From a virus (Duplodnaviria; Caudoviricetes): 64,000 nucleotides of DNA. The position numbers and the translations under genes are program-made. The stretch lies in the IMG/VR virus record IMGVR_UViG_2844571421_000002, positions 13,006-77,005 of that record; one strand, given 5' to 3'. This document shows positions 2,947 through 31,864 of the stretch, piece after piece (position 1 is the first letter of the stretch; each line of letters starts with the position of its first letter). The notes beneath the pieces are model-generated. The model was given only the letters and a program-made list of their open reading frames with translations. It made no database searches and was not told where the DNA came from.

Positions 2947-3776
2947 TCCTTCACTCCTCGGATGTAGCCCTTGAATGCCTCGACGAAGCTCTTCGCGGCG
3001 TCGGCGGCGTTGAAACCCTTCGTCTCGTCTTCGTCCTCGTCGGGCTCGCTCTTCTGCTCGTCCTCGACGTCTTCCTCACTCGTCGACTTCGATTCGTCCT
3101 CGACGTCTTCGTCGTCGGGCTCGCTCTTCTGCTCGTCCTCGACGTCTTCGTCGGTCGACTTCGCTTCGTCTTCGTCGGTCGACTTCGCTTCGGCCCGTGC
3201 GTCGAGCAGCTCGACAACGCGCGTCGCAATGCGTTCAACGAGGTCGTCGGGCGCTTCGTCCAGGGACTTCGAGCGCACGGCCCGCGAGTTTCCCGGAATC
3301 GTCACGACGGAGACTTCGAGCAGTTCCTGTGCGTCGCAGTCGTAGCCGCCGCGCTCGTTCTGCCGATACTGGCCAGGGAGCATGAGGTAACGGACGGAAA
3401 CGGCATTCAGGATGCCCTTTGAAACCTTGCGTTCGACCTTCTTCGCGAACTCGTCTTCGTCGTCGAATTCGATGTCCACCATCAGGGCGTCGCCCTCGAC
3501 GTAGACGCGCCCCTTCCCAATGGGCAACTGCGGCTCAGCGCCCGTCATCGCGGCGCTCGCCCCGTCATCGTGGTTGTAGAGGACGACGCCGTTCGCGTTG
3601 TAGCCGTCCACCCGCCAGCCTTTGACGTTCAGCCGGTCCGAGTAGCGGTCGAAGTCGCCGTCACTCGCTTTGAACTTGAAGACGCGTCGTCCGCCAATGG
3701 ACTCGACGGCGCTCAACGTCGCCGCGTCCTTTCGAACGGCGCTCAGCCGCAGGGAGCGTGTAATGGTTCCAGTCAT
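2943..3776 (-). CDS. HK97-family prohead protease with acidic C-terminal tail
   Basis: DRYSD, VLYNHD, LNAVSVRY, LLEVSVVTIPGN motifs; D/E-rich repeat tail. Confidence 0.87.
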   Translation of the reverse strand: MTGTITRSLRLSAVRKDAATLSAVESIGGRRVFKFKASDGDFDRYSDRLNVKGWRVDGYNANGVVLYNHDDGASAAMTGAEPQLPIGKGRVYVEGDALMVDIEFDDEDEFAKKVERKVSKGILNAVSVRYLMLPGQYRQNERGGYDCDAQELLEVSVVTIPGNSRAVRSKSLDEAPDDLVERIATRVVELLDARAEAKSTDEDEAKSTDEDVEDEQKSEPDDEDVEDESKSTSEEDVEDEQKSEPDEDEDETKGFNAADAAKSFVEAFKGYIRGVKE

Positions 3777-3814: not shown

Positions 3815-5170
3815 GCCGTCCTTCGTCGCCTCGGCATGCGCTTCCGCCGAGCTGCCCTCAACGGGCGTCGGCGTCTCTCCGGGCTCGTTGGGCTTCTGCC
3901 CCGGCAGCAGCTCCGCGAAGCCTTGCCGCTCCGGGTGAGGCTTGAACCCCGCTTCGACTCGCCACTCGTCGAAGGTGAAGGCGCTCGGGAGCGTCCCCAT
4001 CACCCGCAGCCGGTGCTCACGGTCGGCAGGCACGGGAGAGTCGTAGGAGAGAAGCACGTCGTCTTCGAAGCGGGGCGCCAGGTGCTTTTGCATCGACGCG
4101 AGGAAGACTTCGGCGCGCGGCTTCGTCGCCTGTTCGGCAAGGTGCTCGCGCGCTGCGTAGCTGGTCGCCTTGTTGCTGCTCGTCACGTCGCCCACAATCT
4201 CCGGCGGCACCCGGTAGACCATCCGCACGAAGTCCATGAGGAAGCGGCGCAGGTCGACGAGCTGCATGTCGCGGAAGGGCGTGTCGAGCCGGGCAAACGT
4301 CGTCCGGCCGCTCGTAATCATCACCCGGCCTGCGTTGGCGGGGCCCCCGTACTCACGCGCAAGCGATTCCTTGAAGGCCCTCGCGGGCCCGGCCTGAGAC
4401 TCGTTGAAGCCCTCAATCGCGATGACGGCGCCCGGAAGCATGTTGTTGAAGAAGGCGTTCTTTGTGAAGCGCGCCGCGTGCTCGTCGGTGTCGACCTCGT
4501 CGCCCAGGGCGTATGCGATGCCGATACCGCGGCCGAGTGGGTCAGCCGGGTTCAGACGCTTCACGAAGATGACGCTCGCCGCAGGGAGGAGGAACGTCCG
4601 TCCGCCAGCGGCCACCGTGTAAGTGCGCTCGGACTTCGGCTTGCTCAAATCTGGAAGCGCGAGGACGCAATCGGGCGGCACGGGCCACAGGCCCACGGGC
4701 ACGCCCGCCAGCTCTTCGACGACGGCGAAGAACTCGCCCGTCAGGTCGTAGTGCAGACAGAAGAGCTTCGCGAAGTCGCGGCCCGTCATGTAGTCGTTCG
4801 GGTCCGCCAGCAGCCGCAACAGGGGATGGTCGGGCAGCTCCACCGCGCCCCCCGTCTCGACGAGCGACTTCAACCGCTCCCGGCGAATGTCGCCACAGGC
4901 CCGCCGCAGCGACACGTCGACGAGCGTCTTCCGCGTCGTGGGGTCCTGCCGCGTGAAGGCCCGCCACGTCACGTCCGCGAAGGCATCGCCCACCGTGTCG
5001 ACGATAGTGCCGAGCCACGGCATCTCGGCGTAGGCCGCGAGCAGCGCGGGCACCTCCCGACGCGGCGGGGCCGACGCCCAACGGCTCAGCTCCAGCCCCG
5101 TTCCCTTGCGCTTGCCGCTACCGCGAAGCGCGGCGCGCATCCTGTCCAACATCCCCATGGAGAACCTCAC
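3812..5170 (-). CDS. Portal protein (HK97 family)
   Basis: NPADPLGRGIG, FFNNMLPGAVI, GGPANAG, VYRVPPEIVG motifs; lies between terL and protease. Confidence 0.9.
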   Translation of the reverse strand: MRFSMGMLDRMRAALRGSGKRKGTGLELSRWASAPPRREVPALLAAYAEMPWLGTIVDTVGDAFADVTWRAFTRQDPTTRKTLVDVSLRRACGDIRRERLKSLVETGGAVELPDHPLLRLLADPNDYMTGRDFAKLFCLHYDLTGEFFAVVEELAGVPVGLWPVPPDCVLALPDLSKPKSERTYTVAAGGRTFLLPAASVIFVKRLNPADPLGRGIGIAYALGDEVDTDEHAARFTKNAFFNNMLPGAVIAIEGFNESQAGPARAFKESLAREYGGPANAGRVMITSGRTTFARLDTPFRDMQLVDLRRFLMDFVRMVYRVPPEIVGDVTSSNKATSYAAREHLAEQATKPRAEVFLASMQKHLAPRFEDDVLLSYDSPVPADREHRLRVMGTLPSAFTFDEWRVEAGFKPHPERQGFAELLPGQKPNEPGETPTPVEGSSAEAHAEATKDG

Positions 5171-12875: not shown

Positions 12876-14201
12876 GTGACTCCCTCTCTCGACGCCCCCA
12901 CGAACAGCCCCTCGGTCATCGCCGGGGTCATCCAGCGGCTGAGCGTTTCCCAGCTCAAGCGCCACAAGCTGTGCCCGCGCGCATGGTTCTTTCAGAAGGT
13001 CATGCGCGTCCCCGAGCCCAGCACGGGAGCGCAGCAGGTCGGCACCGAAGGACACGCCCAGCTAGAGCATTTCCTAGTGACGGGTGAAGACGTCCTGGGC
13101 ACGTTCGCGAGGGCAGGCGCCCATCTTCTGCCCACGCCCGGTCCCGACCTGCTTATCGAGCAGCCCTTGAACGGTGAACCGTCGCTGATGGCTGGCGGCA
13201 TCCCCTTCACCGGATTCATCGACCTCGTAGACGCTCGACGGCTCGCCTCTGACGGCGTCCTTCGCATCACCGACCACAAGTTCACCAGCAACGTCGCGAC
13301 GAATGCCGCGAGCGCCGAACAGCTCACCGACGCCGACACCGAACCGGGCTTGCAGATGGTCGGCTATGGCGCGTGGGCGCTCAGCCAGGTTGAGCGATTC
13401 CCGGGGCTGCGCACGCTGGAGCTTGAACACCTCTACTACCAGACTCGGGGACAACGCCTTGCCGCGTCCGTCGTCGCAACGGTGCCCGCCGAGCACGTCG
13501 AGCGCGAGTGGCAGACAAAGGTCGAGCCCCAGGTCGAAGCGATGAAGGAGCACGCGCAAGCCGCCCGCGCTTCCGACGTGCCCGCGAACTACGGCCCCGC
13601 CTGCGGCAAGTACGGCGGATGTCCGTTCATGGCGAAGTGCCTCACAGGAGAGAACAAGACGATGTCCCTGCGCGACAAGCTGCTCAACAAGGCTTCCGAG
13701 TCCGCCCCCCTTACCGTTGCCGCGGTCGAGCGCAACGCCACGGAGCTGCCCGCCGTTCTTCCCCCAGACGCGCCCGCACCTACGCCCGTGCAGACGGCCC
13801 CAGAGGTCGCCCAGGCCACTGAGCAGCCCGCGCCGAAGCGTCGCGGTCGCCCTCGCAAGGTGGCCGAGTCCGAGCAGCCCAAGGGCGAAATGCGCGTGCT
13901 CTTCGTCGACTGCATCCCGACGACCTTCGACGGACCGACGCCCGAGTCGCTTACGAGCTACGTCGACACCATGCATCGCAAGGTGGCCGAAGCGGGCGGC
14001 GTCGACGACGTGCGCTTCGCGGGCTCCGACTCGGCGCTCGGGTTCGGCAAGTGGCGCGGGGCGCTGGCCATGGCGGCGCGCGCCGAGCTGCCCGCCCCCG
14101 GCAGCTACGTCGCGCTCGGGGTCGCCCAGTCGGAGCTGATGCAGGTCATCGTCGAGGCGCTCGAACCGGCGTTCGACGTGGTCGTTCGTGGCGTCCACTA
14201 A
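12876..14201 (+). CDS. PD-(D/E)xK Cas4/AddB-like exonuclease with C-terminal AT-hook-bearing extension
   Basis: LSVSQL..CPR, GFIDL..DHKF, C-terminal C..C..C cluster; PKRRGRPRK. Confidence 0.8.
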   Translation: MTPSLDAPTNSPSVIAGVIQRLSVSQLKRHKLCPRAWFFQKVMRVPEPSTGAQQVGTEGHAQLEHFLVTGEDVLGTFARAGAHLLPTPGPDLLIEQPLNGEPSLMAGGIPFTGFIDLVDARRLASDGVLRITDHKFTSNVATNAASAEQLTDADTEPGLQMVGYGAWALSQVERFPGLRTLELEHLYYQTRGQRLAASVVATVPAEHVEREWQTKVEPQVEAMKEHAQAARASDVPANYGPACGKYGGCPFMAKCLTGENKTMSLRDKLLNKASESAPLTVAAVERNATELPAVLPPDAPAPTPVQTAPEVAQATEQPAPKRRGRPRKVAESEQPKGEMRVLFVDCIPTTFDGPTPESLTSYVDTMHRKVAEAGGVDDVRFAGSDSALGFGKWRGALAMAARAELPAPGSYVALGVAQSELMQVIVEALEPAFDVVVRGVH

Positions 14202-21561: not shown

Positions 21562-21777
21562 ATGCCTGATAGCAATGAAGGCACTCCCGAGTTCCTGACG
21601 GTCGATGAGGCCGCAGCACTTCTGCGCGTGAACCGAAAGACACTCTACGAGTCGATTCGGCTGGGTCAGGTGCCGGGAGTCGTTCGCATCGGGAAAGCGC
21701 TGCGAATCCGGCATGCCGCGCTGGTAGAGTCCCCCTCCGGGAAGGGCCGCGATTCTGCGCTTTGGAGTCGACGATGA
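21562..21777 (+). CDS. xis: Excisionase (MerR/HTH_17-like)
   Basis: FLTVDEAAALLRVNRKTLYESI..G.VP..RIG; ATGA overlap with int. Confidence 0.85.
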   Translation: MPDSNEGTPEFLTVDEAAALLRVNRKTLYESIRLGQVPGVVRIGKALRIRHAALVESPSGKGRDSALWSRR

Positions 21778-22994
21778 GCGCCAGGTTGCGGAAGTGGACG
21801 ACGAAGGAAGGAAAGTCTGAGGAGGCGTGGCAAGTGGACTTCGTGTTTCAGCATGCGGACGGACGGAAACAGCGAGTCGTGAAGTTCTCGCCCGTCCAGA
21901 CCCGTCGGGGTGCTGAGCAATACGAACGCGAGCTGCGCAGCGCCTTGCTCAACGGGACTTTCGGAAAGGAGCAGTGCGGCGAGGAAAGCCCCATCACGCT
22001 TGCGGACTTCACTCCGCGGCTCCTCACCTACAGCGAGAACAACAACAAGCACTCAAGCGTCGACAGCAAACGACAGATTCTCAGAGACCATATCCTCCCC
22101 TTCTTCGGGAAGGTGGCGCTCGCGAACATCGGCTTGGCCGAAATCGAAGACTTCAAGGCGCACATGCGCAAGAAGAAGTCGGCAGCTCACAAGCGGAAGG
22201 ACTCCGCGTCAAAGCGAGCCATCCGGAAGCGGCAGCGTAGCGAACCCAAGCCCCTGAGTCTGAAGACCATCAACAACGTGCTGACTGTGCTTCACAAGCT
22301 CCTGACGCTCGCAGAAGAGCATGGGGTCATCCGGCAGGCGCCGCGCGTAAAGCCCTTCGGGAAGCTACCGAAGCCTCCCTTCGACTTCCTGAGCTTTGAG
22401 GAAGCGGATCAGCTTCTCGCCGTCGCTGAGCCCGAATGGCGCACGTTGCTGCGCGTCGCCATCAAGACGGGGCTTCGGCAGGGGGAGCTGATCGGGCTCC
22501 AGTGGCACGACCTGACCCTGACGCGGGGCCTGCTTCACGTTCGCAGGACCATTTGGCGCGGGATAGAGGGTTTGCCGAAGGGTGGGCGTGAACGGACGGT
22601 CGACTTGCCCGCCTCCGTGGTTGATGCGCTCAACGGCCACCGGCACCGTCGGGGGCGGTTCGTCTTCTGTCAGGAGGACGGGCAGCCACTCACCAAGGGC
22701 AAGATGGCGGCACCGCTGGGTCGCGCCCTCCGGGCGGCGGGCATCACCCGCGAAGTGGGGCAAATCGGCTGGCACGATCTGCGCCATACCTACGGCAGCC
22801 ATCTCGCGATGAGGGGTGTCCCGCTGAAGGTGATTCAGGAGCTGATGGGGCACGCGACCATCGAGATGACGAATCGCTACGCCCACCTGAGCCCCGACAC
22901 TCGGAGAGAGGCAGTCGCCGTTTTGGACCGGCCTCTCGCTCTGCCGTGCGACATACGTGCAACATGGAAGGAGGCCGCTCCTAACTGCACGTAA
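21774..22994 (+). CDS. int: Tyrosine integrase
   Basis: TGLRQGEL, HDLRH, MGHA, RYAH catalytic residues. Confidence 0.96.
   Translation: MSARLRKWTTKEGKSEEAWQVDFVFQHADGRKQRVVKFSPVQTRRGAEQYERELRSALLNGTFGKEQCGEESPITLADFTPRLLTYSENNNKHSSVDSKRQILRDHILPFFGKVALANIGLAEIEDFKAHMRKKKSAAHKRKDSASKRAIRKRQRSEPKPLSLKTINNVLTVLHKLLTLAEEHGVIRQAPRVKPFGKLPKPPFDFLSFEEADQLLAVAEPEWRTLLRVAIKTGLRQGELIGLQWHDLTLTRGLLHVRRTIWRGIEGLPKGGRERTVDLPASVVDALNGHRHRRGRFVFCQEDGQPLTKGKMAAPLGRALRAAGITREVGQIGWHDLRHTYGSHLAMRGVPLKVIQELMGHATIEMTNRYAHLSPDTRREAVAVLDRPLALPCDIRATWKEAAPNCT
22945..22965 (+). repeat. 11-bp-period direct repeat CGTGC(G/A)ACAT, putative arm-type site inside the int 3' end
   Basis: CGTGCGACAT-A-CGTGCAACAT read directly; arm role inferred. 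Confidence 0.5.
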
Positions 22995-23010
22995 TCATTG
23001 AACAATTCAA

Positions 23011-23096
23011 TGCACGAGCCGGGGATCGAACCCGGACGGCCCTTACGGGCCAGCGGATTTTAAGTCCGCTGCGTCTGCCAGTTCCGCCACTCGTGC
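23011..23096 (-). tRNA. trnL: tRNA-Leu (anticodon UAA); CCA not encoded; att site
   Basis: Acceptor stem GCACGAG/CTCGTGC, anticodon arm GCGGA-CTTAAAA-TCCGC, long variable arm, GGTTCGATCCC T-arm. Confidence 0.97.
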
Positions 23097-23103
23097 CCAG
23101 TGA

Positions 23104-23116
23104 TTTCAGGTGCTTA
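23104..23116 (+). promoter_or_regulatory. IHF-like site next to att/tRNA
   Basis: TTTCAG-GTGC-TTA versus WATCAR-N4-TTR (one mismatch). Confidence 0.4.
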
Positions 23117-23138
23117 CTGGCCCCCCTTGACCCTCTTC

Positions 23139-23186
23139 AGTAGGGAAATAGTAGGAACGAAAGCAGCTTCCTACGATGTCCCTACT
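23139..23186. repeat. Inverted pair of tandem AGTAGG(G/A)A repeats (arm-type sites or hairpin)
   Basis: AGTAGGGAAATAGTAGGAA-10 nt-TTCCTACGATGTCCCTACT (17/19 complementary). Confidence 0.6.
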
Positions 23187-23307
23187 CGCCCCGCCGCGAC
23201 AAAGGGGGCACTTCACTCCCAGTGACAACACCAGACCAGCCGGAGGATCCTGGACCGGCTCCGCGCCACCAGCAAGCCGAAAGCACCTGGGAGGGGAGGT
23301 CCTATGA

Positions 23308-24462
23308 CTAGGCCGTCGTCACGTCATCCGGCTTGCGCTTGCCGCGACCACGAGACGGCATGAGCACCATCGAATCCAGCGCCTCTTCTGCCTGAGCAGC
23401 CCGCGCCTTCAACTCGGTTGCGGCGTCGGACTTCGTGAAGGTGCCGCCAAGCCAGGCGCTCAGGTCGGCCGCCAGCTCCCCCGCCGACTGGTAACGCTCA
23501 CGAGGGGCAACCCGAAGTAGCCGGCTCAGCGTCACGCGTAGCCCCTGGGGAAGCCCCTCGGTCATCGCATCTACGTCCGCGGCCTTCAGGGTCGCCGCAC
23601 GCCAAATCGCGTCGGACACCAACGGCGGCGCCCCAGTGAGCGTGGCCCGCTTGATTGCCCGAGAGACCCGCCGACGCTTCTTCGTGGACAACGAGCCCAT
23701 GACTTCGGGCGTGATGTCGTCGGGGCAAAAGAGCAGGTTCTTCCCCGTCGCCAGTTCGAGCAGCACGACGCCCAGAGTGAAGAGGTCGGAGCGCGCATCG
23801 ACGCTCCCCCCTAGAAGCATCTCCGGTGACGAGTAGAAGTGGTCTCCCAACGGGCCGCGCGCGGATGAAGCGACTCGCCCCGGCAAGTCGGACAACGCGA
23901 GACCGAAGTCGGCGAGCTGAACCGTCCCATCCCAATTGACGAAGATGTGCTCAACGTCGACCGCCCGATGAACGATGTTGAGTGACCGTCCCTGCGCGTC
24001 CTTCGCGGCGTGCGCGTGCTCAAGGGCCGCTGCGACCTGGACACCGACATAGAGCACGAAGAGCGGCGAGAACCATCGCTGACTCTCACCGACGAGCGTC
24101 AGCAGCTCATTCAGGGAGTGGCCGTCCGGGTGCTCCGTGCTGACGTACCAATAGCCCTCGACCTTGTGCAGTCCATGAACCTTGAGGATGGCCGGGTGCT
24201 TGAGGAACGTCGCAAGGCGAACCTGCTCGTCGAGCTTCGCACGCGCACGCATGACCCGGTCGCCTTCCGTTTCCGATGGCGCCGGAACCGCCTTGAGCAG
24301 CACCTTCCCACGCGGCGCGCCGGACGTGGCCCGCAGCCGCGCTACGAACAAGGACATCCCATGGTGAGTCGGCCCCAAGTCCTCGCGGTACTCGTAGCCG
24401 ACCCCGCCCGCCGAGAAGAGGATCGCCCCCCGTGGGATCTTGAACTCGATTGCCTTCGACAT
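23308..24462 (-). CDS. Hanks-type Ser/Thr pseudokinase (cytoplasmic)
   Basis: VLLK, DFG and SPE..DARSDLF present; catalytic loop is HRAVDVEH and no Gly-rich loop; SD GAGGAG before ATG. Confidence 0.85.
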   Translation of the reverse strand: MSKAIEFKIPRGAILFSAGGVGYEYREDLGPTHHGMSLFVARLRATSGAPRGKVLLKAVPAPSETEGDRVMRARAKLDEQVRLATFLKHPAILKVHGLHKVEGYWYVSTEHPDGHSLNELLTLVGESQRWFSPLFVLYVGVQVAAALEHAHAAKDAQGRSLNIVHRAVDVEHIFVNWDGTVQLADFGLALSDLPGRVASSARGPLGDHFYSSPEMLLGGSVDARSDLFTLGVVLLELATGKNLLFCPDDITPEVMGSLSTKKRRRVSRAIKRATLTGAPPLVSDAIWRAATLKAADVDAMTEGLPQGLRVTLSRLLRVAPRERYQSAGELAADLSAWLGGTFTKSDAATELKARAAQAEEALDSMVLMPSRGRGKRKPDDVTTA

Positions 24463-24613
24463 GCCGTTGCTCCTCGTGTGCGAACTCGCAACCAACGCGA
24501 CGAGGAAAACGCTACCTGCGGCATCTGTTCGAGAGAACGCCTTCACAGGTCATGGGGTCGAAATGGCGTGTTCGCCCCGAAATCGTCCCCCTACCTATTA
24601 CGTACCCCAGCGC

Positions 24614-26407
24614 TCAGGGCCAGCGATCCACGACGTAGCCGCCCCCTGAGTTGAACGCCTTCACTCGACCGTCACTGTATCCTTCAGAGTGGGCCTCGAC
24701 GACGAAGCACACGGGGCGCTCATCCTGCCCCGGTAACCTCACTCGGTCGTAGCGGATGACCAGCGCGGGTCCGTCCGAGCGGCCCATTCGGTCAGATAGG
24801 TAATATGCCTTGCCGTAGAAGTGCGTCCCGGGCGGCGCGAACGCATTCTGGACCGAACGAACTCCCTTCGGAACCACCCCCACCACGTCTGCACCAGCAG
24901 TGAACCAAACAACGTCTTCCGGACCATGACGGGCATTGAGGGTGAGGCTGAACGATTGATTTACCTTCCAGCGGAGATCCTCCCGCATCGACTCTTCCGC
25001 ACCAGCCGGGCAAGTGAACGCCTCGGGCCGAATTTGGGCACTGGGGCAACCCGCCGCGAGAGCCGCAACGAGCGTCATCGTCGCGCAGTCGGCAGCTGCG
25101 GCAGCTTTCGTCCTCCCGCGTGACTGGCGTCCTTGGGGTGGGACCTCGGGTGACGGAGTCGTCTTCACGGTTGAACCTTCCTTCGGAGCGGCAGTTACAG
25201 GCCCCGTCAGCAGCACAGGCGGGGGGCTAGGAGGTGACATAGCAGGGGCAGACGACGTGAGCGGCGCCGAATAAGGAGGGCTCGGCGGGCGCGGCGCACC
25301 AGCGATGGTCTGCGACCCGGTCTCCGTGGGTTCCCCTCGGGCGAGCAAGAAGCCCCCGACTGCTACTAGCGAGATGAGAGTAGCCACTCCCGCCATGAGG
25401 CCCCTTCCAGTCCGCACAGGGCCACGCTCAAGGGCATCTGGCGAGTTCGGCACCTCTACGGCAGGGCGCACCGGCTCAGGTGCTTCCGGCTTCCGTTGCT
25501 CGGACGGCGGATGCACCGGGCATAGGAATTCCGCACTCGAATAGGCCAGGAGTTCGCCCAGCTCACGACGTAGAGCCTCTGAGTCGACGGGGCGCTTGGC
25601 CGGGTCACGCGACAGGATGCAATCAACGAGGTCGTTCAGCGCTTCTGGAACACGCACGTTCAACGCACGAGCAGGAGGCGGCTTCATGACGGTGCTGTTG
25701 AGCGTAACTCGCGCTTGAACCTCCGTCGGTCGGGGGTCAGTCAGCAACTCATAGAGCATTGCCCCGACGGCGAAAATCTCGTCCGCAACCTGGAAGGCGT
25801 ACTTCGCTCGCTGTTCGGCCTTGTGCTCCCGGAGCCATGTGAACTGTTCCGGCGCACGAAAGCGGTCAGTTCCCGGCGGCAAGCCCCAATCCGTCAGCTC
25901 TTCAGCCAACGAGTAGCTCGCACAGCTAAAGTCGATAACGACCGGCTCTCCATCGCTCTTCCGAATTAGAACGTTGGACAGCTTCAAATCCCGATGCAGG
26001 ACGCCACGGCCGTGCATGTACGAAAGCGCGGCGGAAACCTTATCGAAGACCTGCAAGACCTCTTGAACCGTGGGGTGTTTACGCTCTGCCCATTCGGCAA
26101 GGGTCCACCCCTCTACGTACTCGAGCGCAAGGTAGACATTCCCCTGTTCGGAGTATCCATACCCACGGTGCTTGACGATGTTCGGATGGTCCAGGAGGAG
26201 GAGTGCCGAAAGCTCCCGAAGCGTCCGCGCGTGAGTCTGCTTGTCGTCCCCACTCGAATCCCGGTGACGCGCCAATTTGAGCGCGCATCTGCGACCGTGC
26301 TTCTCGACGAGGTAGACGACGGCAAACCCTCCGTTTCCAAGCTCCCGAACAACACTCCATCCGTCGATGGTCGTACCAGGGGGCGGAAACAACGGAATGA
26401 CGTTCAT
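24614..26407 (-). CDS. Ser/Thr protein kinase - TM - Pro-rich linker - extracytoplasmic domain
   Basis: LGNGGFAVVY, ALK, HRDLKLSN, DFS, GT..APE; TM LMAGVATLISLVAVGGFLLA. Confidence 0.93.
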   Translation of the reverse strand: MNVIPLFPPPGTTIDGWSVVRELGNGGFAVVYLVEKHGRRCALKLARHRDSSGDDKQTHARTLRELSALLLLDHPNIVKHRGYGYSEQGNVYLALEYVEGWTLAEWAERKHPTVQEVLQVFDKVSAALSYMHGRGVLHRDLKLSNVLIRKSDGEPVVIDFSCASYSLAEELTDWGLPPGTDRFRAPEQFTWLREHKAEQRAKYAFQVADEIFAVGAMLYELLTDPRPTEVQARVTLNSTVMKPPPARALNVRVPEALNDLVDCILSRDPAKRPVDSEALRRELGELLAYSSAEFLCPVHPPSEQRKPEAPEPVRPAVEVPNSPDALERGPVRTGRGLMAGVATLISLVAVGGFLLARGEPTETGSQTIAGAPRPPSPPYSAPLTSSAPAMSPPSPPPVLLTGPVTAAPKEGSTVKTTPSPEVPPQGRQSRGRTKAAAAADCATMTLVAALAAGCPSAQIRPEAFTCPAGAEESMREDLRWKVNQSFSLTLNARHGPEDVVWFTAGADVVGVVPKGVRSVQNAFAPPGTHFYGKAYYLSDRMGRSDGPALVIRYDRVRLPGQDERPVCFVVEAHSEGYSDGRVKAFNSGGGYVVDRWP

Positions 26408-27267
26408 GGAGTTCCCCCGGAAGCAGCCTTTGGCAACCTCACATTGGGAATCGTGAGAGTGCGACCGTCCCCCACCACCTCCAGAGTAAAGACAGGGCTT
26501 GCACTCAACTTTGCTGTCTCGGCAACCACGAGAATTCGGCCGTATCCGCCTGAAGGCATTGCGCCCGAATCAACTGTTACGATGCGCGCCTTTAGCGGCA
26601 GTCCGACGCGTCCAGTCAGCGTGGCTACTCGCGGCACCCAAGGTGGTTGCCCGAGGTTGTTCCGTATCTCCGCATCCACAAGAACCCACCCCTGTCCGCG
26701 ATAGGCCACCGCGGACACTACAGCGAAGCCTTGTGCCGCATCTCCACGTCCCTTGATGAGCGTTGCCGTTACGCCCTCCTTGTCGACATACCCCAGCATC
26801 ACGAAGTCTTCAGGTCTGGGCATTCGCGGTTCGTCAACCGGGCATCCCTCGGCTGTCATCTCGGGGCGCTGAACATTGATCTGAATGTCCACTTCAGCCG
26901 GGTCCGTCACCAGCGAGAAGGCAGCTCGCGTGGGTGCCCTGCCATCCGCGAAGAAGACCCCAACTTCGTAGCGCTCACCTTCGGCAAGGTCTGCCACTGG
27001 CTGAACGATGACCGACCGTTCTCCGGCGTCTAGAACGCGAATCCGCGACTCGTCGAAGGTAAGGGTCTTCCGGTTGATGGGAGCGGGGAACAGGAAGAGC
27101 GTCGGCGTGTCGCGCGCCACTCGGACGACAGGATGTGGATCGGTAGGGCTGTTTGCAACGGACACCGCTCGGTCCCGCTTCGCTCGTTCCGCTTGTTCCG
27201 CCATGGCTGGCGTCGCAGCCCCCCACGCGAGAACTAGTGCAAGGGCCAATCTGACCGGTTGGATCAA
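26404..27267 (-). CDS. DUF2381 (TIGR02268 myxobacterial family) exported protein
   Basis: Signal peptide; TLFLFPAPI, F.DGRAP..AAF.LV..P.EVD.Q..V.R signature; ATGA-coupled to the kinase. Confidence 0.75.
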   Translation of the reverse strand: MIQPVRLALALVLAWGAATPAMAEQAERAKRDRAVSVANSPTDPHPVVRVARDTPTLFLFPAPINRKTLTFDESRIRVLDAGERSVIVQPVADLAEGERYEVGVFFADGRAPTRAAFSLVTDPAEVDIQINVQRPEMTAEGCPVDEPRMPRPEDFVMLGYVDKEGVTATLIKGRGDAAQGFAVVSAVAYRGQGWVLVDAEIRNNLGQPPWVPRVATLTGRVGLPLKARIVTVDSGAMPSGGYGRILVVAETAKLSASPVFTLEVVGDGRTLTIPNVRLPKAASGGTP

Positions 27268-27490
27268 GGGCGCATGACCTCCCAGAGCAGGAAGCTACCA
27301 TCGCGGATACTGGCGCAGTGGGCCTATTTCCTACAGGTCAGCACGCCCCGTGTGGTGAGCGGTCACCCTTGCCCCACTCTTGGCTTGTTGGTCCCGCCTA
27401 GGTATGAAGGCAGCCGGGCGGCTGTGGTGAGTACGTAGTTCACGGCGTCGCGAGGTCCCTGACCGACCGCGCCGCTTCCGCAGCCGCCCA

Positions 27491-27793
27491 CTATCGGTTC
27501 GCAAGCTTCGCAACGGCGAACCCGGCCCCAAGCCCAGCAAGCAGGGCCACGACGGCGACCGTGAAGGACACGTCCCCGGCCTGCTGGCGTAACGACTCGT
27601 TCTCGGCGCGCAGCCGCGCAATCTCCGAAGCGGTTCGAATGCAGCGGCTTTCCGACAGCCAGCAGCCGCCCTCCACCTCTACGGCTGCCGTGCCTCCATC
27701 GGGGAAGAGCTGCGCGCGCTCGACGCTGATGACCTCCGAGCCCGACGCGGGAAGCGCGAGCAGCACAGCCAGCACGAGCGCGCCGAGCTTCAC
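27491..27793 (-). CDS. Exported coiled-coil protein with C-terminal TM (lysis cassette, spanin-like?)
   Basis: Signal peptide, IARLRAENESLRQQ coil, C-terminal hydrophobic helix; last lysis gene. Confidence 0.45.
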   Translation of the reverse strand: MKLGALVLAVLLALPASGSEVISVERAQLFPDGGTAAVEVEGGCWLSESRCIRTASEIARLRAENESLRQQAGDVSFTVAVVALLAGLGAGFAVAKLANR

Positions 27794-28242
27794 TTGTCGC
27801 CCCGGGTGTCGAGCTGTTCCAGCACAGCAATCGCTGCGGCCTTCTCCGCGACCTGCCCAGCGGCAATCGCGCCCGCCAGCTCGGCGCGGGCAATGGCGGC
27901 GCTCCCGAACAGAATCCGCTTGAAGATGGTGAAGCCACCAGCGGCCGTCAGGGCGACTTGCAGCGCGGTCAGCATCAGGGCCAACGAGAACGGAGCCCCC
28001 GCAGCGAGCGCGTTCGCTACCGCTCCGGCGAGGGAGACGCCAAGCACGAGAACGGCGCCGCCCCTGTCGGTATTGAAGAACGGGACGAACCCGCCACCGA
28101 ACCTCCGCAGCAGGTAGACGAGCACCACCACCACCAGGGCGGCGAGTAGCGCGTAGTTCCTACTCGTCACGGCATCGAGAAGAAGGCGCGCGAACTCCTC
28201 GAACTGCTCGGGGTTCGGCCCGACTGCACCAGCGTCAACCAT
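27790..28242 (-). CDS. Multi-TM holin-like protein
   Basis: 3-4 hydrophobic segments; follows endolysin. Confidence 0.5.
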   Translation of the reverse strand: MVDAGAVGPNPEQFEEFARLLLDAVTSRNYALLAALVVVVLVYLLRRFGGGFVPFFNTDRGGAVLVLGVSLAGAVANALAAGAPFSLALMLTALQVALTAAGGFTIFKRILFGSAAIARAELAGAIAAGQVAEKAAAIAVLEQLDTRGDK

Positions 28243-28254
28243 GTTGCCTCCGGG

Positions 28255-28788
28255 TTAGAAGCCCAGCCGCTCCAGTTCGGCCGCGAGCTTCGGGTTTGCT
28301 GCACGCCACTTCGGCGACAGGCGCTCGGCATCGAGGCGAGCCCACACGTCGGCGAGGGAACTCTGTTGGACCAGGGTGCGAAGCGGCGTGAGCTGAAGCG
28401 CGCTCACGTAGCCCGGCCACTGCACATGGGGGGAGTCGCCGAACCTGCCGCCCCAGACGAGCCCCGCCTTCGTGGATTCCTCACCCAGCACGCGGTAAGC
28501 CGACTCGCGCCAATCCGGCTGCACGCCAGGTCGCGGGCTCGCGTCACAAACGAAGTCGAAGGCGAGGCCGTAGTTGTGCGCGGACAAGCCTGCGGATGAT
28601 GCCTTGCCGCCCATGCCCGCGAGGAAAGAGCGCCGCAGCTCAACCTGCTCTTCGAGGCTACGGAAGCCGTAGGTCGCGACATAGCTCGCGCCACGGGCAT
28701 CGCAACGCGCCACGACCTGAAGGGCGACCGACACGAGCGGCAGGTAGACGCGGTCAAGGTCGACCCGCTTGAAGTTGGCTCGGGTCAC
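28255..28788 (-). CDS. Endolysin, M15-family Zn peptidase
   Basis: GFRSLEEQ, SAHNYGLAFD, DSPHVQ; GTG start overlaps upstream TGA. Confidence 0.85.
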   Translation of the reverse strand: MTRANFKRVDLDRVYLPLVSVALQVVARCDARGASYVATYGFRSLEEQVELRRSFLAGMGGKASSAGLSAHNYGLAFDFVCDASPRPGVQPDWRESAYRVLGEESTKAGLVWGGRFGDSPHVQWPGYVSALQLTPLRTLVQQSSLADVWARLDAERLSPKWRAANPKLAAELERLGF

Positions 28789-29246: not shown

Positions 29247-30251
29247 ATGCCGCCAATACCCGGAAATCCCATGCCTTCAACATCCGCGATTCTAGAACTC
29301 CAAGAACTGGCGCGCTCCCAAACGAGTGTGACGGATCTGCTTCGGCACGCAAAGGCCGTCGCCTCAAAGCTTGGGCTCGACGAATTCGAGGAATGGATTC
29401 GACATGAGATGAATGGCTATCCAGACGCCATCAAAGTCCCTGAATACCGAACAATATCTTCCAAGTTAATGTCCACAGATCTTATCCAAGGAAGAATCCC
29501 CATCGCACTCAAGGATGATTCCCACCTAGTCGAATATTTCTCAAGAACTTCTCTTGCACACCCCATCAGCCAAATCCTCCATATACTACAAACAACTACC
29601 GGCCCGACATTCGAAAGCGAACTTAGTCCAAAAGAACAGGCAAAACTCCCCGAGGAAGTATCCCATAGGCTTCCACTCGTTCGGCGCTACTCCACCTCAA
29701 GCCTTGCATCAATCCCTGACGCCGTTCGAGACAACGTGCTCGACTGGGCGCTAAGGCTTGAGAAGCAGGGTGTCGCCGGAGAGGGGATGATATTTACACA
29801 GAAGGATCGTCAAATCGCCCAAATGGTTACCATCAACAACTTTGGCTCACTCATTCAAGGCGATCACGCCAATCTCGCCACGGCAAATAACTCACCGGGA
29901 GCAGCAGTGTCGGCAGCATCAGGCGACGCACGGACTCATCAGCGGCTTTTCAAGTCAATCGAAGCAGTCAAGAACAGCGATTCCCAGCTAGGCGAAGCAC
30001 TCACACAACTCGCAAATGCCATCTCCAGCAGCAAGACACTCGCCTCCGAAAAGAAGACCGAAGCCACCGAGCAACTAGCATTTGTAGCCGAGCAATGCGC
30101 TCTCCCGGCGGAGCAGCGCCAACCCAAAACTATCCACAGGCACATTCTTTGGCTATTGCGAGAGACATTGGGCCTTGGCGCTGACGTATTGCAGGTGTGG
30201 ACTACCTTCGGCCCGATGCTCTGTGCGGCACTCAGTGTGTCACTCTCCTGA
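29247..30251 (+). CDS. AbiTii-domain protein, copy 1 (likely start 29271)
   Basis: ILELQELA..SVTDLLRHAKAVASKLGL.EFEEWI..EMNGY...VPEYR. Confidence 0.72.
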   Translation: MPPIPGNPMPSTSAILELQELARSQTSVTDLLRHAKAVASKLGLDEFEEWIRHEMNGYPDAIKVPEYRTISSKLMSTDLIQGRIPIALKDDSHLVEYFSRTSLAHPISQILHILQTTTGPTFESELSPKEQAKLPEEVSHRLPLVRRYSTSSLASIPDAVRDNVLDWALRLEKQGVAGEGMIFTQKDRQIAQMVTINNFGSLIQGDHANLATANNSPGAAVSAASGDARTHQRLFKSIEAVKNSDSQLGEALTQLANAISSSKTLASEKKTEATEQLAFVAEQCALPAEQRQPKTIHRHILWLLRETLGLGADVLQVWTTFGPMLCAALSVSLS

Positions 30252-30880: not shown

Positions 30881-31864
30881 ATGCCGCCGAAATCAGCAAT
30901 TCTTGAACTCCAGGAACTCGCCCGCTCAGAAAAGACCAGCATAACAGAGCTACTGCGACACGCCAAAACCGTAGCATCCAAACTCGACCTCGACGAATTT
31001 GAAGCATGGATCAAGTACGAGATGAACGGCTATCCCAATGGAAATAGCGTTCCTGCATATCGGATTATCCCATCGAAATTGATGGCCAAGAATCCAGTCC
31101 GCGGAAACATCCCTGTCGATCTCGACGAAGTCCCCGATTTGGCGAAATATTTCGCTACAACTCCCTTACCCCAGCCCATTAGTCAAATTCTCCATATCGT
31201 CCAGACGAACAAGAACTCGACGCTTGAGGCACCACTTCTCACAGAGGAAATGACAGGCTTACTAAATGGCCTAACCATCAGATACCCGCTTATTCGGTGC
31301 TTCTCCAGATCCAACTTCGCCTCCGTACTTGATGCAGTCAGAGACACCGTCCTTGATTGGGCCCTTAAGCTTGAAAAGAAAGGAGTAACAGGAAAAGGCA
31401 TGGCCTTCACACAACAAGACCGCCAAACCGCTCAAGTATTGACAATTAACAACTTTGGCTCTCTCATCCAAGGCGACCACGCCAACCTAGCCACCGCTCA
31501 TAATTCGCCTGGAGCGGCTGTCTCCGCATCGTCTGGGATGGCCAAAACCCACCAACGCTTGAATAAGTCGATCGAAACTGCAGAAGCTCGCGACGTCCGA
31601 CTCGGCGAGGCGCTACGGCAATTGGCAACTGCAGTCACATCAAGCCAATCGCTTGAGTCTGGTCAAAAGCAAGAGGCGACCGAGCAACTCACATTCATAG
31701 CCGAACAGTGTGCGCTCCCGCCAGAGCAGCGCCAGCCGCTGACCATTCAGAAGGGAATCCTCGGGAATCTACGAGAGACACTCGGTCTCGGAGCGGATGT
31801 GCTGCAAGTCTGGACCACATTCAGTCCAGTCATCTACGCCGCCCTAATCAACACATTATCCTAA
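30881..31864 (+). CDS. AbiTii-domain protein, copy 2
   Basis: Paralog of 29247-30251 with the same N-terminal signature. Confidence 0.72.
   Translation: MPPKSAILELQELARSEKTSITELLRHAKTVASKLDLDEFEAWIKYEMNGYPNGNSVPAYRIIPSKLMAKNPVRGNIPVDLDEVPDLAKYFATTPLPQPISQILHIVQTNKNSTLEAPLLTEEMTGLLNGLTIRYPLIRCFSRSNFASVLDAVRDTVLDWALKLEKKGVTGKGMAFTQQDRQTAQVLTINNFGSLIQGDHANLATAHNSPGAAVSASSGMAKTHQRLNKSIETAEARDVRLGEALRQLATAVTSSQSLESGQKQEATEQLTFIAEQCALPPEQRQPLTIQKGILGNLRETLGLGADVLQVWTTFSPVIYAALINTLS

Follow-up and report, generated by a model that had tools for sequence, protein, structure and literature searches.

A prophage-borne kinase module of myxobacteria whose periplasmic parts are predicted to fold like VirB9 and VirB10

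In a 64,000-nucleotide stretch of a Caudoviricetes provirus (IMG/VR record IMGVR_UViG_2844571421_000002, positions 13,006 to 77,005; the whole stretch is called the window here), three adjacent minus-strand genes encode an exported DUF2381 protein, a membrane-bound Hanks-type Ser/Thr kinase that ends in a β-barrel domain, and a soluble pseudokinase. Structural models of the DUF2381 protein and of the barrel resemble VirB9 and VirB10, respectively, which form the core of type IV secretion systems (T4SSs). We think it probable, with moderate confidence, that the three genes form an envelope-sensing unit that feeds a kinase–pseudokinase pair, and that this copy is prophage cargo drawn from a module specific to the Myxococcaceae.

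All three open reading frames recorded in the initial annotation are present on the minus strand. The first, a DUF2381/TIGR02268 gene of 287 amino acids (26404-27267), matches Pfam PF09544 (E = 6e-58, 196.8 bits; cut-off 29.2) and NCBIfam TIGR02268 (E = 6e-79, 265.5 bits; cut-off 76.15), and its product has an N-terminal Sec-type signal peptide that ends in AMA, followed by two β domains. Its stop codon overlaps the start of the kinase gene (24614-26407, 597 amino acids) by 4 nt (ATGA), an overlap that is kept in 34 of 42 related loci. The cytoplasmic kinase domain (residues 18-280; 25568-26356; Pkinase E = 2e-36, 125.9 bits) carries Lys44, HRDLKxxN at residues 138-145 (HRDLKLSN), DFS at 159 and APE at 185, all invariant in 90 of 91 relatives. 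Judged by these motifs (Gly-rich loop, β3 Lys, HRDxKxxN, a DFG-type motif and APE), it is a predicted Hanks-type Ser/Thr kinase. A single transmembrane segment (residues 337-356; 25340-25399), a Pro-rich, poorly conserved periplasmic linker that was read from the translation (residues 357-408; 25185-25339) and the C-terminal β-barrel domain (residues 455-597; 24617-25045) follow in that order, all on the minus strand. Pfam and NCBIfam scans of the C-terminal region (about residues 455-597) were empty.

The third gene (23308-24462, minus strand, 384 amino acids) has a partial Pkinase match. An alternative GTG start lies at 24546, but the true start is probably the ATG at 24462, because relatives of the protein are about 382-384 residues long. 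Its catalytic loop reads HRA-x-D-x-x-H in place of HRD-L-K-x-x-N, with HRA in 120 of 121 relatives; His stands in for the catalytic-loop Asn in 97 of the 121. No GxGxxG remains in the degenerate Gly-rich loop, but the β3 Lys, DFG and SPE are invariant. Given the conserved Asp two residues after HRA, the protein may have residual or atypical activity.

The same arrangement recurs across the family, in support of the initial annotation. Scanning one genome per species gave 43 DUF2381 loci in Myxococcus, Corallococcus, Pyxidicoccus, Hyalangium and related metagenome-assembled genomes. A kinase gene directly follows DUF2381 in 42 of the 43. Of the 36 loci long enough to show what comes after, every one has the barrel, and 29 have the pseudokinase next; seven loci either lack the pseudokinase or have another kinase pair in its place (36% identity). 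Elsewhere the pseudokinase match is in two pieces about 2.4 kb apart (L008:9842-13370), which may reflect an insertion, or is split by a frame change (L041:3174-4336). Among 151 Myxococcota genomes sampled, a profile of the barrel had matches in 13, each 8.4-9.9 Mb in size; per genome there are 13-50 DUF2381 genes and 5-21 recognizable barrels.

The barrel also occurs without the kinase. In two carrier genomes (G001 and G002), all eight further DUF2381 genes that we inspected (L069-L076) have the gene for a stand-alone barrel about 10 nt behind them. Its product, of 163-180 amino acids, is a lipoprotein that begins with a classical signal peptide; no kinase gene lies close by, and the flanks of these pairs gave few Pfam matches. 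A metagenome contig has the same arrangement of DUF2381 and stand-alone barrel at 27% identity. Because such pairs exist without a kinase, and because nearly all barrels adjoin a DUF2381 gene (5/5 barrel matches in G002, 8/9 in G001), the conserved core of the family is the DUF2381–barrel pair, and the kinase–pseudokinase pair is an addition in one branch.

With its cytoplasmic N terminus, one transmembrane segment (337-356), Pro-rich stretch (357-408) and terminal barrel (455-597), the predicted topology of the second protein is that of VirB10, an architecture that had been proposed before and that we also read from the sequence. In a 19-residue Kyte–Doolittle window the transmembrane segment peaks at 2.29, and the next highest stretch reaches 1.56 at residues 435-436. 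We considered and rejected a second transmembrane segment at residues 441-453, which would make the barrel cytoplasmic: the stretch is hydrophobic over no more than about 12-13 residues, with a Kyte–Doolittle value of 1.56 against 2.29, basic residues lie upstream, and the same stretch is a cleavable lipoprotein signal in the stand-alone homologues. Because this stretch is too short and too weakly hydrophobic to span the membrane, the barrel should be periplasmic in the full-length protein as well.

The modelled fold of the DUF2381 protein points to VirB9. The model (m4dbf829c9215; predicted local distance difference test (pLDDT) score 68.8) has β domains at residues 31-133 and 167-277. In a Foldseek search of the Protein Data Bank (PDB), its best seven matches are all members of the VirB9 family (E = 2e-8 to 2e-6), among them TraK (7spb_C1, E = 2e-8), DotH, Xanthomonas citri VirB9 and TrwF; generic proteins with two immunoglobulin (Ig)-like domains enter the list only at about 3e-4. 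Aligned alone with VIA-align, the N-terminal domain matches DotH (Z = 11.9, root mean square deviation (rmsd) 2.9, 104 amino acids) as well as CagX and the N-terminal domain of TrwF (Z = 10.3 each). These alignments cover the VirB9 N-terminal domains at nearly full length (98-104 amino acids, rmsd 2.9-3.8). A search with a protein language model gave weak leads to CagX and to TraN/DUF4138. Together these comparisons support a VirB9-like predicted fold for DUF2381, most clearly in the N-terminal domain.

For the barrel, we modelled residues 440-597 from an alignment of 24 family members (model m1b0f6c36973a; pLDDT 84.7, predicted template modelling score 0.78). Foldseek ranks 1-16 in the PDB are all C-terminal domains of the VirB10 family (E = 1.8e-3 to 5e-2, probability 0.93-1.0), including CagY, X. 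citri VirB10, TrwE, TraF, ComB10 and the Dot/Icm dome. A wide VIA-align search of 48,161 chains, made independently of Foldseek, also placed seven VirB10-family chains at the top: TraF (3jqo_A) at Z = 7.4 (rmsd 3.5, 106 amino acids), 6gyb_c and F-plasmid TraB (7okn_A) at Z = 7.3 each, and ComB10 the lowest of the seven at Z = 5.0; the next unrelated chain falls to Z = 3.6. In the ESM Atlas, the first neighbours beyond the barrel's own family are TrbI clusters (template modelling score 0.53-0.54). The models therefore support a fold like that of the VirB10 C-terminal domain, without the antenna helices. In VirB10, the antenna helix pair forms the outer-membrane pore or channel.

Several results weigh against a T4SS relationship. 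Both fold models were built on shallow alignments of 24-28 sequences, all of them family members, and only one of five DUF2381 models reached the pLDDT of 68.8. The C-terminal domain of DUF2381 matches unrelated Ig-like sandwiches (Z = 8-9) about as well as it matches VirB9. No Foldseek match of the barrel to the PDB lies below E = 1e-3, the best being 1.8e-3, and its VIA-align scores (Z = 5-7.4, including the best) fall within the range that the tool calls common. The antenna helices are missing from the barrel model, which has only a six-residue helix (79-84) in their place; the domain measures 144 amino acids against about 190-205, and about 106 residues of the 176-residue TraF range align. 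At the level of sequence, the hidden Markov model (HMM) of CagX (PF03524) found no match in DUF2381 by hmmscan or in the carrier genomes, a DUF2381 profile gave 0 matches to PDB sequences at E ≤ 10, and an hhalign comparison of DUF2381 with a Myxococcota VirB9 alignment was not significant (E = 0.087). The TrbI HMM (PF03743) had no match at E ≤ 1 in an hmmscan of the kinase, nor any on genome G001, which has nine barrel copies. Comparison of the barrel with a Myxococcota alignment of the VirB10 C-terminal domain gave E = 0.11 and a probability of 0.5%. A search of 1.84 billion representative sequences with the barrel profile retrieved only 80 proteins; the matches examined were the barrel's own relatives, with no bridge to TrbI.

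These points are what would be expected if the protein were an ordinary receptor Ser/Thr kinase, the sensor and Ig-like accessory of which resemble VirB10 and VirB9 by convergence or through a common β architecture, with no T4SS ancestry or assembly. We regard this as unlikely. In every structure library, both proteins match the T4SS pair first, with the step down to Z = 3.6 at the first unrelated barrel chain, and the DUF2381 N-terminal domain aligns with its VirB9 counterparts over nearly their full length. The gene order and tight coupling mirror virB9–virB10, and the second protein has the layout of VirB10 itself. The individual fold matches are moderate; they gain weight because two adjacent, coupled genes retrieve two adjacent, interacting T4SS proteins in the same order. 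The kinship with VirB9 and VirB10 put forward in the initial annotation is thus borne out in the predicted folds of DUF2381 (a signal peptide and two β domains) and of the kinase C-terminal domain, and is not borne out in sequence, for which the HMMs and profile–profile comparisons lack significance. The hhalign comparisons, which were not significant, aligned only the motif PPGT..YG..RYDRVKLPG, to which the initial annotation had drawn attention near the C terminus, and a P-x-W-x-P motif; both are suggestive at most. We therefore treat the barrel and DUF2381 as alike in predicted fold to VirB10 and VirB9, with common ancestry possible, and do not class them as members of TrbI or CagX, because no sequence method links the families, the antenna is absent from the model and no VirB4 was found in the record or in three carrier genomes.

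The linker of the kinase gene contains a second, probable translation start. An internal ribosome-binding site, GAAGGAAGG (25184-25176), is followed by an in-frame GTG (25168-25166; the two together span 25166-25184, minus strand), which would open a prolipoprotein nested within the kinase gene. From there, a signal-peptide-like stretch (25046-25165, minus strand) with a basic n-region and a hydrophobic segment (LVAALAAG) leads to the lipobox residue Cys454 (25048-25046). Within the otherwise poorly conserved linker, the motif AAG GAA GG(T/A) NNN NNN (G/T)TG AAG is conserved across 36 loci. The Glu codon of the internal Shine–Dalgarno sequence is GAA in 35 of the 36, against a GAA share of 31% of Glu codons in these genes. 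The start position is GTG in 23 loci and TTG in 13, with no other synonym, whereas GTG makes up 42% of Val codons and TTG 12% of Leu codons in the same genes; the 36 loci are related to one another, so these counts are not independent. We propose an internal start because a Val-to-Leu exchange that always keeps a start-capable codon is hard to explain otherwise.

The lipobox (LAAGC) and its Cys are invariant in two family alignments, with basic residues upstream, and in the stand-alone homologues the same Cys ends a true N-terminal lipoprotein signal peptide and aligns to domain position 1. It is likely, on this evidence, that the kinase gene yields two products, the full-length kinase–barrel protein and the nested prolipoprotein. 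The latter is predicted to be about 184 amino acids long, and its mature form would be the barrel alone, at 144 amino acids, with Pro or Thr at position +2.

Among 29 complete modules, co-variation groups the components in two pairs. The periplasmic parts are the faster to diverge, with a mean pairwise distance of 0.41 in DUF2381 and 0.42 in the barrel; the cytoplasmic kinase domain and pseudokinase reach 0.26 and 0.32, respectively. Partial correlation of these distances amounts to 0.63 for DUF2381 and barrel (permutation p = 5e-4) and to 0.57 for kinase domain and pseudokinase, and it is about zero for barrel and kinase domain, although these belong to one polypeptide. A comparison of the window with a sister provirus (L068), which has the tail-fibre gene, lysis cassette and module in the same order, shows the same division. 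The flanks, kinase domain and pseudokinase are 89-99% identical (kinase domain 90-97%), whereas DUF2381 is mostly 59-75% and the barrel 73-82% identical; identity is 69-73% over the transmembrane segment and the start of the linker (25302-25601) and 87% over 25152-25301. This divergence pattern fits a periplasmic unit that was swapped or selected as a whole. The co-variation is indirect support for an interaction between DUF2381 and the barrel; a further caution against our interpretation is that shared periplasmic selection can produce such co-variation without binding.

Set beside known systems, the module is closest to the VirB9–VirB10 core (with VirB7) of T4SSs, represented by pKM101 TraO/TraF, F-plasmid TraK/TraB, R388 TrwF/TrwE, CagX/CagY and DotH/DotG. 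The two share both predicted folds, the order of a VirB9-like gene followed closely by a VirB10-like gene with tight coupling, and the bitopic VirB10 layout of the second protein. A lipid anchor is available in both, from VirB7 in T4SSs and from the barrel's own lipobox in the module. Unlike the T4SS core, the module has no detectable sequence similarity to these proteins and no channel-forming antenna helices; it is not accompanied by VirB4, VirB11 or VirD4 ATPases, a pilin or a relaxase, its cytoplasmic end is a Hanks kinase, and its genes occur in 5-50 paralogous copies per genome. The absence of a VirB4 ATPase, remarked on in the initial annotation, extends to the whole provirus record and to carrier genomes G001-G003 (PF03135).

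Receptor Hanks kinases such as PknB and Stk1, with their PASTA repeats, offer a second comparison. They share with the module an N-terminal cytoplasmic kinase, a single transmembrane segment and an extracytoplasmic sensor, and activation in both is probably by sensor-driven clustering. In the module, by contrast, the sensor is a VirB10-like barrel dependent on, or co-evolving with, a VirB9-like partner that is exported on its own; the module also adds a dedicated pseudokinase and probably a kinase-less sensor isoform made from the same gene.

The gene clusters themselves are already in the literature; their folds are not. In Myxococcus xanthus DK1622, clusters of a DUF2381/TIGR02268 gene, a Ser/Thr kinase gene and a 'PKc-like' gene (MXAN_1232-1234, ~2175-2177, 3181-3183 and ~4839-4841) were described by Dziewanowska et al. 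in 2014 (PMC3986340), only as kinases of unknown role. They have the same gene families in the same order as the module, with a kinase of about 597 amino acids followed by a kinase-like gene, and MXAN_1232 is 78% identical to the DUF2381 protein of the window. The window copy differs from them in its prophage setting and its strain of origin, and the account of the DK1622 clusters mentions no fold, no lipoprotein isoform and no place in a prophage (PMC3986340). The same paper gives the 'PKc-like' proteins MXAN_1234, 2177, 3183 and 4841 as 596-597 residues long. The lengths of the kinase and 'PKc-like' genes appear to be swapped there, because 596-597 residues fits the upstream membrane kinase, the relatives of the pseudokinase are about 383 amino acids long, and MXAN_3182 is the gene listed as a Ser/Thr kinase elsewhere (PMC3222651).

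Expression of the last gene of the four DK1622 clusters is down 35-46-fold in tan-phase cells, with the upstream kinase unchanged (PMC3986340). According to a passage in a 2026 preprint, the authors of that study proposed that phase variation is under the control of clusters of Ser/Thr protein kinase and DUF2381 genes; the preprint itself reports spores to be enriched for insertions in MXAN_3182 and MXAN_4374 (bioRxiv 10.64898/2026.08.28.747804). In the literature searched, we found no link between these clusters and VirB9 or VirB10. New here are the stand-alone lipoprotein pairs as core unit of the family, the evidence for the nested start, the co-variation pattern in two pairs and a mosaic copy carried by a prophage.

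The window belongs to an IMG/VR provirus record of 77 kb and comprises about 1.5 tandem prophage units: its positions 1-23000 and 40578-64000 are tandem repeats of the right half of the prophage (88-98% identity, period ~40.6-43.2 kb), an arrangement reminiscent of Mx-alpha, a polyploid element of M. xanthus. At the end of the first unit stand genes for a family-A DNA polymerase and a tyrosine integrase (21762-22994) and, next to the integrase gene, a tRNA-Leu(UAA) gene identified with ARAGORN (23011-23096, minus strand), which marks the junction of the two units. The three module genes start directly after this tRNA. Beyond them, with increasing coordinates, lie small open reading frames, an M15 endolysin gene, two diverged AbiTii genes (29247-30251 and 30881-31864), which stand between the tail-fibre gene and the lysis cassette, and a 1078-amino-acid tail-fibre-like gene. 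This puts the module at the end of the second unit nearest the attachment (att) site, opposite the integrase, where prophages usually carry cargo. In Myxococcus dinghuensis (L002), the same tRNA-Leu(UAA) follows the pseudokinase (L002:10170-10256), with lysis genes but not the integrase in common with the window; the module–tRNA junction is therefore conserved between lysogens. The record stops inside the second prophage copy. A promoter and terminator scan of 23000-28400 gave nothing usable.

This position raises the question of whether the prophage copy is an anti-phage or lysogeny device, one that senses adsorption or envelope damage and responds with abortive infection or control of prophage induction, as the initial annotation suggested. 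The module sits beside the att-site tRNA and, with the lysis cassette in between, about 2 kb from the two AbiTii genes, a neighbourhood that likens the window copy to anti-phage kinase systems. The AbiTii reading frames have no match covering at least half their length (E ≤ 1e-8) at the corresponding position of the sister provirus (L068:4137-6195), and for that reason they seem to be variable cargo. Against PADLOC profiles of the defence kinases PD-T4-6, Stk2, mad6 and PglW, the kinase domain gives E = 1e-46 to 1e-19, with resemblance to PD-T4-6 and mad6 in particular, and hypervariable periplasmic parts are what an arms race would be expected to produce. The PADLOC matches cover only the generic kinase domain, however; DUF2381 has none, and none of these systems contains DUF2381 or the barrel. 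Only 4 of 44 other loci share either the lysis-gene synteny of the window prophage (L001, L002 and L068) or its integrase (L031); most of the 43 genomic loci are without the genes of this prophage. L068 is the only other IMG/VR contig with DUF2381, no isolated phage in INPHARED has the gene, and genomes carry 13-50 copies. Published expression data tie the paralogs to yellow/tan phase variation rather than to phage (PMC3986340). There is thus no support for the proposed part in phage sensing, defence or prophage switching, which we hold to be improbable for a large, mostly chromosomal paralogous family. The window copy is cargo at a prophage end, a location not described before, whereas most copies are chromosomal.

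Rapid divergence of the periplasmic parts would also suit a polymorphic system of cell-surface or kin recognition, in which barrel lipoproteins reach the outer membrane and are exchanged between cells, and kinase-bearing versions signal that a cell has met a non-matching variant. Members of the barrel family are lipoproteins, each genome has many divergent paralogs, and Myxococcus is known to pass on lipoprotein toxins by outer-membrane exchange (PMC8546572). Directly upstream of DUF2381 and on the same strand, 16 of the 43 loci have a gene for a lipoprotein with lipobox VVSAC and a C-terminal DUF6310 domain, followed by a DUF5953 gene (for example L016:5139-6823), a layout suggestive of a lipoprotein toxin encoded with its immunity protein, of which the myxobacterial SitA/SitI cassettes are an example. 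One stand-alone DUF2381–barrel pair has an AHH nuclease gene close to it (L069:2480-3778). But these toxin-like neighbours occur in a minority of loci, their function is guessed from architecture and the window has no DUF6310/DUF5953 pair; we judge this explanation very improbable. Last, a decayed, functionless remnant of a conjugative or type IV secretion element could explain why only two T4SS-like parts are left with no VirB4 ATPase in the record or in G001-G003, but this reading is effectively refuted by the pattern of conservation: the frames are intact, more than 40 loci from several genera keep the same synteny, coupling and motifs, the catalytic residues of the kinase are invariant, and Pfam profiles of VirB4, VirB9 and VirB10 find no canonical T4SS genes in three carrier genomes.

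For the envelope-sensing unit coupled to a kinase–pseudokinase pair, the results presented are gene anatomy, fold similarity, conserved synteny, the internal-start signature and co-variation; its physical binding, localization, ligand and output are inferred. The periplasmic pair would consist of the Sec-exported, VirB9-like DUF2381 protein and a small barrel, similar to the VirB10 C-terminal domain, from a family that is natively lipoprotein. In this module, the barrel comes after a Hanks kinase, one transmembrane segment and a Pro-rich linker in a single polypeptide, which would give the bitopic VirB10 layout with a kinase in place of the cytoplasmic tail, and the internal ribosome-binding site and GTG or TTG start would probably also supply the barrel alone, lipid-anchored. 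The cytoplasmic pair would be made up of the kinase domain and the pseudokinase, the product of the downstream gene. We hypothesize that a complex of DUF2381 and barrel near the outer membrane reads a variable envelope or surface cue, that the cue alters the clustering or conformation of the tethered kinase, and that the kinase passes the signal on jointly with the pseudokinase or by way of it. A more tentative extension is that the DUF2381–barrel pair descends from the VirB9–VirB10 core of a T4SS and now serves as a large set of fast-diversifying envelope receptors; the two forms of the barrel (the inner-membrane kinase–barrel protein and the lipidated outer-membrane form) and the VirB9-like protein might then form a periplasm-spanning ring or bridge that couples events at the outer membrane to clustered activation of the kinase.

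If this picture is correct, the module would be the first case of T4SS core parts re-used for signalling rather than transport, and a way for a Gram-negative cell to link its outer membrane to a cytoplasmic Ser/Thr kinase. It would also be a clean example of a nested gene, with two products that share one domain in different membranes. DUF2381 and the unnamed barrel family would gain a testable role, and phenotypes should be within reach in a laboratory strain, because expression shifts of the paralogs (PMC3986340) and effects on representation in spores (bioRxiv 10.64898/2026.08.28.747804) are known. For the myxobacteria, which have very large kinomes with mostly unknown inputs, it would provide a structural handle on dozens of orphan kinases.

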